Source: Micavibrio sp. (GTDB taxonomy: Bacteria; Pseudomonadota; Alphaproteobacteria; Micavibrionales; Micavibrionaceae). From it: a stretch of DNA of 64,000 nucleotides. Below the pieces are notes generated by a model, which was not told the origin of the DNA, searched no databases, and was given only the letters and a program-made list of their open reading frames with translations. Position numbers and translations under genes: made by a program. This document shows positions 18,379 to 34,238 of the stretch, one piece after another. Every line of letters starts with the position of its first letter. The stretch's first letter is position 1. Location: assembly GCA_002687495.1 (NCBI GenBank), contig NZAJ01000093.1, positions 238 through 64,237 on the forward strand, read 5' to 3'.

Positions 18379-19137
18379 TTGGAAAGTTTTGATAACACCC
18401 ATTTTTTAGCATTTGGCGATGGTGAGCAACCTATCTATTGGGCGCATGGCTGGGGACAATCACATAAAGCCTTCCTGCCATGGGCAGAGCGTTTCAAAGC
18501 TTTTGGGAAGCATATCCTGCTAGATTTTGCAGGGCACGGCGCCTCCCCTATCCCGCCTACAGCTTGGGGAACTGAGGATTATGCCGATGAAGCGGCTAAA
18601 CTTATTAAAGCACGCGAAGATGGCAAGCCGGTCATTTGGGTTGGACATAGCTTTGGCTGCCGCGTCGGGCTTCAGCTCGCTGCGCGTCACCCTGAGCTCA
18701 TCGCTGGCTTATGCCTGATCGCTGGTGCAGGACTAAAACGCAAAAGATCCCTATGGCAGAGGCTTTATTTCGGCGGGCGTATAAAACTGTTTAAGCTTTT
18801 GAAAAAGCTCATTCCTTTAGGCTTATCGCAGGATTGGCTCTATACAAAATTCGGCAGCCCCGATTATAAGAGCGCAGGCGAAATGCGCAAAATTTTCGTC
18901 AAAGTGGTCAATGAAGATCTTTCAGAGGTTGCTCAGCAAATCCAATGTCCTGTCACGCTTATTTACGGTAGCGACGATCAAGAAACGCCGCCAGAGATAG
19001 GCGAGCGCCTACATAAACTTATAAAAAACTCTAAGCTTATTGTTTTAGACGGGTTTGACCATTACACTCTTCTTTCTAGTGGACAACATCAAGCTGCTGG
19101 GCATTTAGACAACTTAATTAAGAGCGTAAAATCTTAG
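18379..19137 (+). CDS. alpha/beta hydrolase
   Basis: 252 aa. TTG start with AGAGG 7 nt upstream. GHSFG nucleophile elbow, and candidate GSDD and FDHY acid/His positions. Its stop codon TAG (19135-19137) directly abuts the ATG of the next gene. Confidence 0.8.
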   Translation: MESFDNTHFLAFGDGEQPIYWAHGWGQSHKAFLPWAERFKAFGKHILLDFAGHGASPIPPTAWGTEDYADEAAKLIKAREDGKPVIWVGHSFGCRVGLQLAARHPELIAGLCLIAGAGLKRKRSLWQRLYFGGRIKLFKLLKKLIPLGLSQDWLYTKFGSPDYKSAGEMRKIFVKVVNEDLSEVAQQIQCPVTLIYGSDDQETPPEIGERLHKLIKNSKLIVLDGFDHYTLLSSGQHQAAGHLDNLIKSVKS

Positions 19138-20775
19138 ATGACGGACTTTGCTGTAACCTTACTTCTTTTCATTGCTTTCATCGGCTTTTCAGCCAAGCGC
19201 ACGATGAGCTATATGCATATTTACCAGCAAGAAGAATATGATAGCCCTCGTTTTAAACGCTGGATGTTTAAAAACAAAGTTTTCGATAAGCGTTTAAGTT
19301 CGATCCTATTTATCTTATCGCTTGCTTTACTACCTGCGACATTACTTTTTGATGTGATTCCTGTTTTTGCAGCGAATTTCATTTTGTTTTTTATCTTCGC
19401 TTTAGTTGCGTATTTTGAAAAAGATCCACGCAAGAAATCCAAGAAAAAACTTGTTATGACTGAGCGCGTGAAGCGCATTTATGCACCAGCGGTTTTAGTC
19501 AGTGCGCTTAGCGGGTTATGGTGCTTTTTATTGCCGCAAGCTTATCCGTTATGGATTATTAATATCCAGCTCATTCCTTTTTGGATTATGGCTGTGAATG
19601 GTGCGCTAGCTCCACATGAGGCGCGCGTTCAGCAGAAATTCTGGCAGGAGGCGCATGACAAGCTTGTTGATTATCGTCCTTATGTGATCGGTATTACAGG
19701 CTCTTTCGGTAAGACATCCGTAAAGCATATTTTAGGGCATATCCTTAAAATGCATGGCTCTACCTTAATTACACCAGGTAGCGTTAATACACCGATGGGC
19801 ATTACACGTATTATTCGTGAGCAATTAGAGCCCGAGCATAAATATTTCATCTGTGAGATGGGTGCTTACGGGCCAGGTTCAATTAATCGTTTATGCCAGC
19901 TTGCCCCACCAGATATGGGGCTGATCACGTCTATCGGTCATGCGCATTATGAGCGTTTCAAATCACTCGAGACAGTGGCTGAGGCGAAATATGAGCTCGC
20001 GGAATCTGTATTGCGTAAAGATGATGGCGTTGTCATTGTGAATGAGCAGACATTGCGCTTTGCTCATACGCGTCAAATTCGCGATCAATATAGACATCAA
20101 TTCATAGTGTGTAGTGATGCACATGCGCCAACAGCGGATGGAAAAGCACCTGAGCCTAGTGATGCGATGATCCATAGCATTGAGCAAGATGCATCAGGTT
20201 TGAAGATTAACTTCAAATGGAAAAATATCACTTATGCAATTACGGCGCCGATCTATGGCTTGCATCATGGGCATAATATTGTTTTGGCCTTTATTGCTGC
20301 GCTTGAGCTTAGAGTGGATGAAAAAGACATCCAAGCTGCGCTGAACAGCTTGCCGCAGATTGATCACCGCCTACAGGTAAAGCCACAAAGTAACGGTACA
20401 ATTGTTATTGATGATGCTTACAACTCCAACCCTGTCGGGTTTGCGAGCGCGCTTGATTTGCTCAACACCTTGGCGCGAAAGGGTCGTAAAATCCTTATCA
20501 CGCCAGGCATGGTCGAGCTTGGCGCCGCGCATAAAGACGCGCATGAGAAAATCGGCATTCATGCTGGTAAGGTTTGCGATGTTGTGATCGTCATTAAATC
20601 TGAGCGCATCCCGAGCTTTGTTGAAGGGTTTAAGTCTAGCGGTGGCAAGCATATCTTGGAAGTTGAGAGCTTTGGCGAAGCGCAGCGTTGGGTCAATGAT
20701 AACGCGCAACGCGGCGATGTCGTTTTAATAGAGAATGACCTTCCTGATCTCTATGAACGCGTGCCGAAATTTTAA
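19138..20775 (+). CDS. murF: MurF-family Mur ligase with an N-terminal polytopic membrane region
   Basis: 545 aa. Residues 1-157 contain about five hydrophobic segments. After those come P-loop GITGSFGKTS, TPGSVNTPMGI, EMGAYGPG, GHAHYERF and IDDAYNSNP, which together resemble UDP-MurNAc-tripeptide--D-Ala-D-Ala ligase. Confidence 0.8.
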   Translation: MTDFAVTLLLFIAFIGFSAKRTMSYMHIYQQEEYDSPRFKRWMFKNKVFDKRLSSILFILSLALLPATLLFDVIPVFAANFILFFIFALVAYFEKDPRKKSKKKLVMTERVKRIYAPAVLVSALSGLWCFLLPQAYPLWIINIQLIPFWIMAVNGALAPHEARVQQKFWQEAHDKLVDYRPYVIGITGSFGKTSVKHILGHILKMHGSTLITPGSVNTPMGITRIIREQLEPEHKYFICEMGAYGPGSINRLCQLAPPDMGLITSIGHAHYERFKSLETVAEAKYELAESVLRKDDGVVIVNEQTLRFAHTRQIRDQYRHQFIVCSDAHAPTADGKAPEPSDAMIHSIEQDASGLKINFKWKNITYAITAPIYGLHHGHNIVLAFIAALELRVDEKDIQAALNSLPQIDHRLQVKPQSNGTIVIDDAYNSNPVGFASALDLLNTLARKGRKILITPGMVELGAAHKDAHEKIGIHAGKVCDVVIVIKSERIPSFVEGFKSSGGKHILEVESFGEAQRWVNDNAQRGDVVLIENDLPDLYERVPKF

Positions 20776-27620: not shown

Positions 27621-28706
27621 CTAGCGGAGTTTTAATGTCGCAAGGCCGATGAGCGCTAAGATCACAGCGATAATCCAAAAGCGGATAACGATAGTTGGCT
27701 CTGACCAGCCTTTTTTCTCGAAATGATGATGAAGCGGTGCCATTGCAAACACCCGTTTTCCGGTGAGCTTAAAGCTTGTCACTTGAACAATGACGGAAAC
27801 TGTTTCCAAAACAAATAGGCCGCCAATAATCGCCAAGACAAGCTCATGTTTGACCATAACAGCGATAGCACCAAGCACCCCGCCCATAGCAAGGGAACCG
27901 GTATCACCCATAAAGATCATAGCTGGTGGGGCGTTATACCATAAAAAGCCCATAGCACCGCCAATGAGCGCGCCACATAAAATCGCAAGCTCACCGCTGC
28001 CGATGACATATGGCACTTTGAGGTAATTCGCAAAAATTTCATTCCCGACAAGATAGGCGATCAAACCAAAACAGGCTGCGGCGATGGCTACTGGTACAAT
28101 CGCAAGGCCATCAAGACCATCTGTTAAATTTACAGCATTAGACGCGCCAATCATGACGAAGAGCGCCCATGGTACAAAGAATAAACCAACATAGATAAAA
28201 GTCTCTTTCATCATAGGAATGGCTACATGCTGATTAATATGATCGGGCAATGTATTCATGACGCCAAAGGCCGCAATACCGCCAAACAGGATTTGACCCA
28301 GAATTTTAAGCTTTCCAGAAAGGCCTTTAGAGTTTTTCTTTGTTAGCTTGAGGTAATCATCAGCAAAACCAATCAGACCGTAGCCCACCATCACGAGTAA
28401 TGCATACCATATAAGTGGATTAGAGAGATCAGACCAAAGAAGCGTTGAGATTGTCACCGAGATTAAAATCATCAAGCCGCCCATACTTGGCGTACCGACT
28501 TTGCTCGCATGAGCTTCTTCTAAATATTCACGAACATTGCTAGCGCCAGCTTGTTTGGCTTTAAGCCATGTGATCATCGGCTTGGCAATTAAAAAGCAAA
28601 TCATTAGCGCTGTCAGCACAGCCAAACCTGTTCTGAATGTCAAATAATTGAACAGGTTGAAAAAGATATGTGTTTCAGCCAGCGGCGTTAAGAGATGATA
28701 TAGCAT
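27621..28706 (-). CDS. mraY: phospho-N-acetylmuramoyl-pentapeptide transferase
   Basis: 361 aa. NAVNLTDGLDGLA and PLHHHFE motifs. Confidence 0.97.
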   Translation of the reverse strand: MLYHLLTPLAETHIFFNLFNYLTFRTGLAVLTALMICFLIAKPMITWLKAKQAGASNVREYLEEAHASKVGTPSMGGLMILISVTISTLLWSDLSNPLIWYALLVMVGYGLIGFADDYLKLTKKNSKGLSGKLKILGQILFGGIAAFGVMNTLPDHINQHVAIPMMKETFIYVGLFFVPWALFVMIGASNAVNLTDGLDGLAIVPVAIAAACFGLIAYLVGNEIFANYLKVPYVIGSGELAILCGALIGGAMGFLWYNAPPAMIFMGDTGSLAMGGVLGAIAVMVKHELVLAIIGGLFVLETVSVIVQVTSFKLTGKRVFAMAPLHHHFEKKGWSEPTIVIRFWIIAVILALIGLATLKLR

Positions 28707-28776
28707 AATATTTTTATATAGCCTTTATACTTTTTGTCTTTTTTTAAAAGCGATCAAATGCGCTTTTATTGACTTT

Positions 28777-29241
28777 TTATTGTAGAACTTCTTCCTTCGT
28801 ATCACGCACTCGAGACGCGGAAACAGCGCGGATTACTCCAGCATAGCGCATACCTTCACGCCCATGACGATAGAGCATATAATCTCCAGGTCTTATTACT
28901 TCAGGAACAACGGCGGCCAGTTTGGCACGAGGAGCGATCGCTTGCAAGCTCTCAGTAACATTTGCCACGACACCAAAACCACGATCTAGATACACCAAGT
29001 CCAGATCGTCGATATAGCGAGGCAAGCGCACTTTATGCTCTTTTTCTTTAGGCACTTTCAAATCCACTTCCAAGAAATCAGGCAAAGCGTTTTTCAGCAA
29101 AACTTTACGTCTGCCCCGCCCTGTATCAATCACACTTTCAACATGCAAAATTGTATATGGCGTCTTTGGCTTTGGACGAACACTGACTTTCATCCCGCCG
29201 ACTTGCCTATGATGCCAATGTGAGTGTCTTGGTGCTTTCAT
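28777..29241 (-). CDS. hypothetical basic protein (154 aa) occupying the canonical murF position
   Basis: An AGAGGGA SD lies 6 nt upstream of the ATG, 15 bp after the murE stop. The mraY start is 70 bp downstream with no terminator between. His-rich N-terminus (HSHWHH). No Mur ligase motifs. Confidence 0.65.
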   Translation of the reverse strand: MKAPRHSHWHHRQVGGMKVSVRPKPKTPYTILHVESVIDTGRGRRKVLLKNALPDFLEVDLKVPKEKEHKVRLPRYIDDLDLVYLDRGFGVVANVTESLQAIAPRAKLAAVVPEVIRPGDYMLYRHGREGMRYAGVIRAVSASRVRDTKEEVLQ

Positions 29242-29256
29242 GGTGTATCCCTCTCT

Positions 29257-30702
29257 TTAGTCTTTTTCTTGTCTTAAAGTTTGAATTGCATTTGCGGCTT
29301 CTTCCGCATCATCGAAATGATCTGTATGGGTGGCAAAGCTTTGGCCTTGCTCATGGCCTTTTCCTGCGATCAGCAAGATATCGCCTTTTCTAAGCTGTGA
29401 AATGCCCGCTCTGATCGCTTCACGGCGATCACCTATTTCTTCTAATGTGCTGGAGGCGCTTAAAATTTCCGCGCGAATGCTGGCAGGATCTTCTGAGCGC
29501 GGATTATCATCCGTAACGATTGCGGCATCAGCTAAGCGGCTTGCAATCTCGCCCATGATCGGGCGTTTCCCCTTATCACGATCGCCGCCGCAGCCAAATA
29601 CACATACAAGCTTAGAGCCATCGGCGACATGCGGACGCAGCGCGTTTAAAACCGTTTCCAGCGCATCTGGTGTATGGGCATAATCAACATAAATACCTGC
29701 TTTTTCAGGGTGCCCGTCAATAAGCTGTAGGCGCCCTGGCGCGCCTTTTATTTGCCCTAAGGCCTCAAGATAGATATTCGTTTTATCCGGATTTGAGCCA
29801 ATCGCCATACCAAGAGCGCATAGAGCATTCATTGCTTGAAATTCTCCAACCAAAGGCAGTTCAATTGTATATGGGTTTCCATGCACACCAAGTGCTATCA
29901 CTTGACCATGGCTATTTGCCGCGCGCTCAACCAGACGGATATACTCAGCCCTATACCCATAATCGATAACCTTAATGGAGCGCTTTTCACAGATTGCCTT
30001 AAGTGTATCAAATTCCGGTACATCCGCATTTAAAACAGCGATACCTTTATCAAGCAGCACCTCTGAGAATAGACGCGCTTTTGCTTGCAGGTAGTTCTCC
30101 ATCGTTTGGTGATAATCAAGATGATCACGGCTTAGGTTCGTAAATCCCGCAACTTTAATGCTCGCGCCATCGAGGCGAGATTGATCAAGCCCATGAGATG
30201 AGGCTTCCATTGCCAAATGCGTCACATTTTGCTCTTCTCTTAAGCGCTTAAATTCTTTATGCAGAGCCACTGTTTCAAGGGTTGTCATTTTCCCGCTTAA
30301 TGTGCCTAGTGATTCCGCACGTTCGCCTGAATAGCTCCAAAGCTGCTGTAGGAACGACACAACAGATGTCTTCCCGTTTGTGCCTGTTACTGCGGCAATC
30401 ATAGCAGGCTGCTCTTTATAAAAGGCGGCGGCTAGCAGCGCGAAGAGATGGCGAGGATTATCATCTGTGATTAACTCAGGCTGAGCCGCTGTATCAGACA
30501 GCCCATCAATATTTTCAGGCCGTTGCGTACCGCTCGGCGCCAAGATATAGCGCGCGCCGTTCGCAAGCGCTTTACCGATAAAATCACGACCATCAAATTT
30601 TTCACCCGGAAATGCAGCGAAGAGAAAGCCCGGCTCAACCGCACGGCTATCTTGAGTAAGACCCGTAATATTCGAAACGATAGAGGCGATATCAAGTGTC
30701 AT
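29257..30702 (-). CDS. murE: UDP-N-acetylmuramoyl-L-alanyl-D-glutamate--2,6-diaminopimelate ligase
   Basis: 481 aa. P-loop GTNGKTS and the DNPRSEDP motif of meso-DAP-adding enzymes. Confidence 0.95.
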   Translation of the reverse strand: MTLDIASIVSNITGLTQDSRAVEPGFLFAAFPGEKFDGRDFIGKALANGARYILAPSGTQRPENIDGLSDTAAQPELITDDNPRHLFALLAAAFYKEQPAMIAAVTGTNGKTSVVSFLQQLWSYSGERAESLGTLSGKMTTLETVALHKEFKRLREEQNVTHLAMEASSHGLDQSRLDGASIKVAGFTNLSRDHLDYHQTMENYLQAKARLFSEVLLDKGIAVLNADVPEFDTLKAICEKRSIKVIDYGYRAEYIRLVERAANSHGQVIALGVHGNPYTIELPLVGEFQAMNALCALGMAIGSNPDKTNIYLEALGQIKGAPGRLQLIDGHPEKAGIYVDYAHTPDALETVLNALRPHVADGSKLVCVFGCGGDRDKGKRPIMGEIASRLADAAIVTDDNPRSEDPASIRAEILSASSTLEEIGDRREAIRAGISQLRKGDILLIAGKGHEQGQSFATHTDHFDDAEEAANAIQTLRQEKD

Positions 30703-33917: not shown

Positions 33918-33963
33918 ATGACTTTCATGGGCAAAACAGACAGAATTTAACGCAGTATTTTAC

Positions 33964-34162
33964 GAATCACGGATGGACTCAAAAAAGGCTTAAGAACAAG
34001 CCTTGACTCTATTAGAAGTATCACTGAAGGCATGAATTCGTCAATTTTTCCGCCGAGTCGCACACCAAGTTACACACATATATTTTCCTGTGGGGGAATC
34101 ATTTACGGAATCAAATTTATACACCATATCGATAAACCCAACACACTACTTGCAATTGACTC
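33964..34162. promoter_or_regulatory. cluster of seven GANTC sites in the divergent rsmH / FTR1 intergenic region
   Basis: Sites start at 33964 (GAATC), 33976 (GACTC), 34005 (GACTC), 34055 (GAGTC), 34096 (GAATC), 34108 (GAATC) and 34158 (GACTC). Confidence 0.5.
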
Positions 34163-34180
34163 GCATTTACATTAAAGATT

Positions 34181-34196
34181 TTAAGAATAATTCTCA
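34181..34196. promoter_or_regulatory. iron-responsive-operator-like imperfect palindrome upstream of the FTR1 permease
   Basis: TTAAGAA-TAA-TTCTCA lies 43-58 bp upstream of the ATG. It matches 11/14 positions of the Irr ICE motif TTTAGAA-N3-TTCTAAA and is also Fur-box-like. Confidence 0.35.
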
Positions 34197-34238
34197 CCAC
34201 CTTCCCAATTCCTTTTAAAGGAGCCAAGGAGAGCATAT

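Follow-up and report, generated by a model that had tools for sequence, protein, structure and literature searches.

Few gene orders in bacteria are as conserved as murE-murF-mraY, whose middle gene encodes an essential enzyme, MurF, that is also a drug target. In the window (the whole stretch of 64,000 nucleotides from a Micavibrio sp. genome that we analyzed), the place of murF between murE and mraY is taken by an open reading frame (ORF) for only 154 amino acids. We asked what this small gene is, what has become of murF, and what the gene product may do.

A short basic ORF between murE and mraY

A sequence-only reading of the window had reported, on the strand of murE and mraY and between them, an ORF for an unknown protein. 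Its coordinates, start, and stop were all verified. The ORF and its orthologs are referred to here as stubs, and the features of the locus are as follows.

19138..20775, plus strand: membrane-anchored MurF-like ligase (TM-MurF), the presumed functional MurF replacement; 545 aa, with Mur_ligase_M and Mur_ligase_C
27621..28706, minus strand: mraY, the downstream neighbor, with Glycos_transf_4 and MraY_sig1 matches; ATG at 28706
28745..28768, spacer between the stub and mraY: palindromic hairpin TAAAAGCG-N8-CGCTTTTA, perfect over 8 bp, terminator-like for the antisense (plus) strand only
28777..29241, minus strand: stub ORF, 154 aa, ATG at 29241-29239 and TAA at 28779-28777; read here as a probable lone MurF C-terminal domain (domain 3) relic, noncatalytic, with a pI of 10.1 and under purifying selection
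29248..29255, minus strand: Shine-Dalgarno sequence GAGAGGGA, 6 nt 5' of the stub ATG
29257..30702, minus strand: murE (UDP-MurNAc-L-Ala-D-Glu:meso-DAP ligase), the upstream neighbor; 573.9 bits with NF001124 (cutoff, 476)

The murE stop codon (TAA, 29259-29257) is separated from the stub ATG by 15 nt, and the spacer between the stub and mraY measures 70 nt. The Shine-Dalgarno sequence with its 6-nt spacing was confirmed at 29255-29248. No terminator-like call was made on the coding strand across murE, the stub, and mraY, in agreement with the earlier statement that no terminator separates the gene from its neighbors; the hairpin in the downstream spacer is antisense only, and its fold (z-score, -1.06) was not significant and was no better than those of shuffled sequences. 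At positions 29242 to 29259, the stub and murE share a reading frame, with the TAA and five codons (REGYT) between them, so that read-through of the stop codon would yield a MurE-stub fusion. Such a fusion was rejected as a general mechanism because the frame relation is not kept in the orthologs.

The product is basic, as had been described, with a pI of 10.08 and 29 K+R residues compared with 18 D+E residues. Scans of Pfam and NCBIfam returned no significant match for it, and a P-loop was absent too. The His-rich N terminus mentioned in the sequence-only reading is present in the window's stub (4 His among the first 12 residues) but is confined to its sublineage and is not conserved among the orthologs.

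[quoted passage not shown]

A sister genus carries in the murE-mraY slot a canonical MurF of 486 aa, which scored 385.7 bits with TIGR01143 and 549.7 bits with NF010693 (cutoffs, 288.6 and 544 bits, respectively). BLASTP aligned residues 25 to 149 of the stub with residues 356 to 482 of this protein (E value, 2e-9) and matched the stub to a 430-aa, P-loop-less MurF-like protein from another genus, here called pseudo-MurF (E value, 3e-16). Profile-profile comparisons with hhalign gave 97.1% (E value, 7.6e-11) for canonical MurF and, better than this, 99.5% (E value, 7.2e-23) for pseudo-MurF. An alignment of 45 sequences was colinear over the entire domain 3, with D120 invariant in 45/45. Together with the shared slot, the BLASTP, hhalign, and alignment results point to a remnant of murF that consists of domain 3 alone, and the stub ORF almost certainly descends from the MurF C-terminal domain. 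The protein can thus no longer be called unknown.

By descent, and as judged from these homologies, the stub is a member of the Mur ligase C-terminal domain superfamily, although the PF02875 HMM itself gave no match. Its gene occupies the place in the dcw cluster that canonical murF has, between murE and mraY, and it retains from canonical MurF domain 3 (PF02875) a colinear sequence, the core hydrophobic pattern, and the IVPDV-x-PGD turn. It differs from canonical MurF in its length, in the absence of domains 1 and 2, in its pI (about 10, compared with about 5 to 8 for canonical domain 3), and in its predicted secondary structure, which is not Rossmann-like. Neither TIGR01143 nor NF010693 matched the stub at an E value of <=1. 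The three-domain MurF architecture with its GxxGK[TS] P-loop is absent, domain 3 alone being left, and so are the domain 3 motifs D-x-Y-N-A-[NS]-P and G-D-M-x-E-L-G: stubs read V-[QR]-P-K-P-[RK]-T-P (QPKPRTP-like) at the DxYNANP position and L-K-N-A-L-P-D (LKNALPD-like) at the GDMxELG position. The earlier remarks that the protein has no P-loop or Mur ligase motif and is too short, at 154 aa, to be MurF were therefore accurate. A sequence-profile search of the PDB with the family alignment as the query produced only chance matches (E value, >1).

Distribution of the stub and a graded series in the murF slot

The survey comprised 61 Micavibrio-type MAGs from the order, namely, the window's genome and 60 relatives. 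Whole-genome searches found the stub family in 31 of the 61; weaker matches lay inside open frames of 420 to 520 aa in other genera of the family. Within the genus of the window, 19 of 20 genomes have the stub, and the other one is also without mraY, so that an assembly gap explains its absence there. Every same-genus genome with an assembled slot carries the stub, which answers in the affirmative the earlier question of whether orthologs occupy the same place in related genomes, and the murE-stub-mraY synteny was found at 20 of 20 orthologous loci.

When 1.84 billion representatives were searched exhaustively with a profile, 70 clusters emerged, about half of which are stand-alone proteins of ~140 to 170 aa; about 20 others are proteins of 408 to 462 aa that match at their C termini. 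The carriers of stubs are uncultured, mostly marine, Micavibrio-type MAGs (e.g., "Micavibrio sp. TMED27"). The window's stub has the motifs of this family (TVSV-x-P-x-P-R-T-P-Y, L-I-D-T-G, L-P-R-R-I-A-N-L-N-C-V-Y-T-G, I-V-P-D-V-x-x-P-G-D-F, and R-F-A-G-V-x-R-A) as well as its position in the murE-mraY slot.

The contents of the slot in the surveyed genomes are graded. Family f4 has a 490-aa MurF-like protein that has kept the P-loop, has lost DxYNANP, and scores 136 to 168 bits with TIGR01143; it may represent an early stage of decay or may be a divergent MurF that is still active. At two f4 loci (L039 and L040), the P-loops read GVLGKT and GSVGKS, DxYNANP is replaced by IDETAHISP and IDETLHFCP, and TM-MurF is also present. 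Full-length P-loop-dead proteins fill the slot in genera g2, g3, g14, and g16 of family f1, and a stub of about 150 aa does so in genera g1 (that of the window), g8, g10, and g15. In families f5 and f6, murE abuts mraY, and a genome-wide profile search found no stub.

The unannotated pseudo-MurF is the nearest relative of the stub, the two being alike in their slot, their basic domain 3, and their co-occurrence with TM-MurF. At the loci that we read, it comprises 421 to 430 aa between murE and mraY (about 410 to 460 aa in the family) and scores only 73 bits. Pseudo-MurF keeps domains 1 and 2, whereas the stub begins, at the junction of domains 2 and 3, with a new leader of 25 residues (M-x-x-x-N-x-x-N-W...). 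At four loci (L026, L027, L033, and L034) and in about 20 clusters, the P-loop is replaced by [IV]-A-V-Q-G-x-x-x-R, and domain 1 is well conserved. From their sequences, the full-length pseudo-MurFs look like a maintained pseudoenzyme family of their own.

The cultured species M. aeruginosavorus (strain ARL-13) shows the ancestral arrangement, with a murF of 1,413 nt (GMV_1904), mraZ, and ddl beside murB. Since its murF is normal, the published RNA-seq data for this strain are uninformative on the stub. In family f5, an ORF of ~430 aa (MDFIFESYAFDAKTGVLKL...; L036:2648-3943, also at L035 and L037) follows mraY in place of the usual murD start; it had no Pfam match, and in L037 the frame extends to 531 aa.

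An MraY tree of 35 loci was built to map single versus multiple truncations, and no conclusion was drawn from it because its topology conflicts with the genus assignments. One g3 genome nests within g1 as the sister of that of the window, and G003, G010, G011, and G013, all four of them g1 genomes, fall with families f4 and f6. Recombination or transfer in the dcw cluster could account for this discord, as could a weak single-gene signal.

The mraZ gene (PF02381) was absent from the dcw position (33918-34238 in the window) in the window's genome and in all genomes of the same genus, and a genome-wide search of the window's genome found none. It was also absent in g2, g3, g10, g14, g16, and family f8. 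Genera with mraZ are the stub carriers g8 and g15 and all those of the family that have canonical MurF, and families f4 to f7 have it as well. The possibility of an MraZ- or AbrB-like fold, which had been considered for the stub, is not borne out: PF02381 did not match the stub, and g8 and g15 carry both a stub and a normal mraZ. A role of the stub as a simple substitute for MraZ was rejected because both occur together in these two genera.

A membrane-anchored MurF-like ligase and the proposed displacement of MurF

No canonical murF was found elsewhere in the 1.97-Mb, 90.5%-complete assembly, in which TM-MurF is the best MurF-like sequence. The relocated membrane MurF-like ligase that the sequence-only reading had placed at 19138-20775 was verified by its Mur_ligase_M and Mur_ligase_C domains and its hydrophobic N terminus, and it is relevant here. 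Its score with TIGR01143 was 216 bits (below the 288.6-bit cutoff), over model positions 72 to 403 only, and MurF domain 1 is absent. The approximately 170 N-terminal residues comprise hydrophobic segments and are basic, and the P-loop (GSFGKT) and DAYNSNP are intact. A gene for an alpha/beta-hydrolase (18379-19137) lies directly upstream, its last base (19137) abutting the TM-MurF ATG at 19138.

Canonical MurF and TM-MurF excluded each other in the survey: a MurF above the TIGR01143 cutoff occurs in 24 of the 61 genomes and the N-terminal domain of TM-MurF in 35, with no overlap between the two sets. Just two genomes, 89 to 90% complete, have neither. Covariation of the stub with TM-MurF, which had been suggested as a check, holds in part. 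The f1 genomes with TM-MurF that were examined have a stub or pseudo-MurF, but f5 and f6 have TM-MurF alone. The idea that the stub is a partner of TM-MurF is weakened by these two families, in which TM-MurF is carried, murE abuts mraY, and a stub is found nowhere in the genomes; the stub is therefore dispensable in principle and is not required by TM-MurF.

Purifying selection on the stub

All of the 20 orthologous ORFs are intact (145 to 162 aa), free of internal stops, and start with an ATG at an equivalent position, and most of them have a purine-rich stretch (AAGGAG, GGAG, or GAGG) no more than ~15 nt upstream of the chosen ATG. We estimated dN/dS by the Nei-Gojobori method (NG86) for 13 pairs with a dS of <1.5. 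The median for the stub was 0.095 (0.044 for the closest pair), and the values for its neighbors over the same 13 pairs were 0.051 (mraY) and 0.136 (murE). Differences at codon positions 1, 2, and 3 in 11 close pairs numbered 257, 136, and 782, respectively, so that 782 of 1,175 fall at third positions; one pair of stubs has 38 nucleotide differences and just 4 amino acid changes. By these sequence measures, the stub has the look of a translated gene and is subject to purifying selection of roughly the strength that acts on murE; it is not a decaying pseudogene, and its function is very likely kept at the protein level.

Charge and predicted structure

Domain 3 of canonical MurF has a pI of 4.9 to 8.8, and its net charge lies between about -1 and +1. 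In pseudo-MurF, where domains 1 and 2 are acidic or neutral, the net charge of the same domain is +5 to +8, and its pI is 9.7 to 10.0, depending on the cut chosen for the domain. Stubs have pIs of 9.4 to 10.9 and net charges of +9 to +14 in most cases (+5 to +8 in g8 and g15). The MurE of the window's genome has a net charge of -17.

AlphaFold was run twice, with an alignment of 23 stubs and with one of 45 rows, in which domain 3 sequences of canonical MurF and pseudo-MurF were present too, and gave the same beta-rich secondary structure both times, with pLDDT values of 73.7 and 80.5 and pTM values of 0.63 and 0.69 from shallow alignments and with no control fold. In these models, stub segments that align with helices of canonical domain 3 come out as strands, and a C-terminal helix is present. 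A Foldseek search of the PDB with the models, which derive from those shallow alignments, retrieved no Mur ligase (best E value, 0.25). As both models are beta-rich and are without a Mur ligase match in the PDB, the stub may or may not have retained the ancestral fold. The beta-rich model may be either a failure of prediction or real remodeling, and we do not count the AlphaFold and Foldseek outcome as evidence against homology to MurF domain 3.

A proposed history and its alternatives

Taken as a whole, the observations are best explained by a stub that is the surviving domain 3 of MurF, retained after displacement of the enzyme by TM-MurF, a reading to which we assign a probability of roughly 60%. 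In this scheme, whose order of events is inferred from distribution, the membrane-anchored paralog encoded 8 kb away in the same dcw cluster would have taken over D-Ala-D-Ala addition, and the resident murF would then have lost its catalytic motifs. In the genus of the window, domains 1 and 2 of murF would have been lost as well. At the boundary between domains 2 and 3, a start codon and a ribosome-binding site would have arisen to serve the leftover domain 3, and the charge of this domain has changed from acidic or about neutral to strongly basic.

The retained protein might be a small, nonenzymatic adaptor or regulator for the steps of precursor synthesis from MurE to MraY, being neither a ligase nor an obligatory TM-MurF subunit. 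Candidate binding partners would be an acidic protein, such as MurE, or the anionic face of the membrane beside MraY and TM-MurF. We put this specific role forward only tentatively. It is favored because the stub stays translationally adjacent to murE and mraY and because a protein with a net charge of +10 would be attracted to acidic MurE or to anionic lipid. It is favored also because Mur enzymes are reported to assemble: MurE-MurF fusions and MurG and MreB scaffolds are known, and dcw gene order is thought to mirror the assembly of the encoded proteins (PMC10214165, PMC6420597, PMC3187750). Such multienzyme assemblies offer a rationale for a noncatalytic piece of MurF beside murE and mraY, but the published MurE-MurF contacts run through the central domains and not through the C-terminal domain (PMC10214165), which speaks against the adaptor role. 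A role as a cell wall or division factor, as the sequence-only reading had proposed, is possible.

Several other explanations were weighed against retention of a displaced domain. Insertion of an unrelated, novel small protein at the former murF site, for instance, one with an MraZ/AbrB-like fold, would fit the lack of Pfam and NCBIfam matches and the lack of PDB structural matches for the models, but its probability is close to nil: both sequence and profile comparisons relate the stub significantly to MurF domain 3, graded intermediates occupy the same slot and provide a chain of homology through pseudo-MurF, and the stub is without an MraZ signature. The stub might also be neutral wreckage, i.e., a dead fragment of murF that awaits deletion and is functionless as a protein. 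Loss of the catalytic motifs and complete deletion of the gene in two families are what such a fragment would lead one to expect. Its close-pair dN/dS of 0.04 to 0.10 at a dS of about 1 to 1.4, the excess at third codon positions (782/1,175), the 20 orthologs without internal stops (the start and the Shine-Dalgarno-like stretch being kept in most), and a family that spans at least four genera, with stand-alone stubs in roughly half of the 70 clusters, make this explanation highly improbable.

A split enzyme, in which the stub is an obligatory trans-acting subunit of TM-MurF, gains from the finding that every f1 TM-MurF genome examined has a stub or pseudo-MurF in the slot (one genome, G002, has an unassembled slot and is outside this count) and from the location of both genes in one dcw cluster. 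We nevertheless regard it as very unlikely, since TM-MurF owns a complete domain 3 with DAYNSNP, the piece that it misses is domain 1, which is not in the stub, the stub has lost the ligase motifs, and TM-MurF occurs without any stub in the genomes of families f5 and f6. Neofunctionalization as a polyanion binder would make the stub a remodeled, perhaps refolded, basic regulator that binds nucleic acid or membrane and controls, for example, the dcw genes at the transcriptional or post-transcriptional level. The charge reversal is specific to domain 3 (mostly +9 to +14 in stubs versus about 0 in canonical MurF), AlphaFold twice returned a beta-rich structure with a C-terminal helix (pLDDT, up to 80.5) that has no PDB match, and mraZ is missing in the genus of the window. 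The stub, however, has no known nucleic acid-binding motif or family match and coexists with mraZ in g8 and g15, the AlphaFold alignments were shallow and had no control fold, and the hydrophobic pattern still follows that of canonical domain 3; we consider this alternative unlikely. A bolder form of it, in which the orphaned domain 3 has been rebuilt as a beta-rich, strongly basic fold with a new, nonligase activity, seems quite unlikely to be correct. That activity could be, for example, polyanion binding (RNA, DNA, or membrane) in a regulator of precursor flux or dcw expression. If true, the rebuilt fold would be a natural change of both fold and function in a fragment of an essential enzyme.

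Implications for Mur ligases and their annotation

Literature searches found no paper that links Micavibrio with MurF and none that describes the stub or pseudo-MurF. Another Mur-ligase-fold protein that has been given a different job in the same pathway is MurT, which derives from a Mur ligase and is a subunit of the lipid II amidotransferase MurT/GatD. Unlike the stub, MurT is a catalytic protein and has retained the central domain, which binds ATP.

Displacement by TM-MurF and retention of domain 3 remain our preferred reading, and the stub itself appears to be a conserved, selected, noncatalytic pseudoenzyme or domain relic of MurF. The lineage shows each step of a displacement, from a MurF that is partly degenerate, through one that is catalytically dead and one that is cut to a single domain, to one that is deleted, and a single leftover domain can remain under strong selection over a long time. 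For annotation, the locus carries the warnings that "hypothetical proteins" of this kind in conserved slots may be relics rather than new genes and that a missing canonical murF does not equal missing activity. Because the stub would be a naturally minimized piece of MurF whose retained job is noncatalytic, it may offer a handle on the suspected nonenzymatic (assembly or regulatory) roles of Mur ligases.
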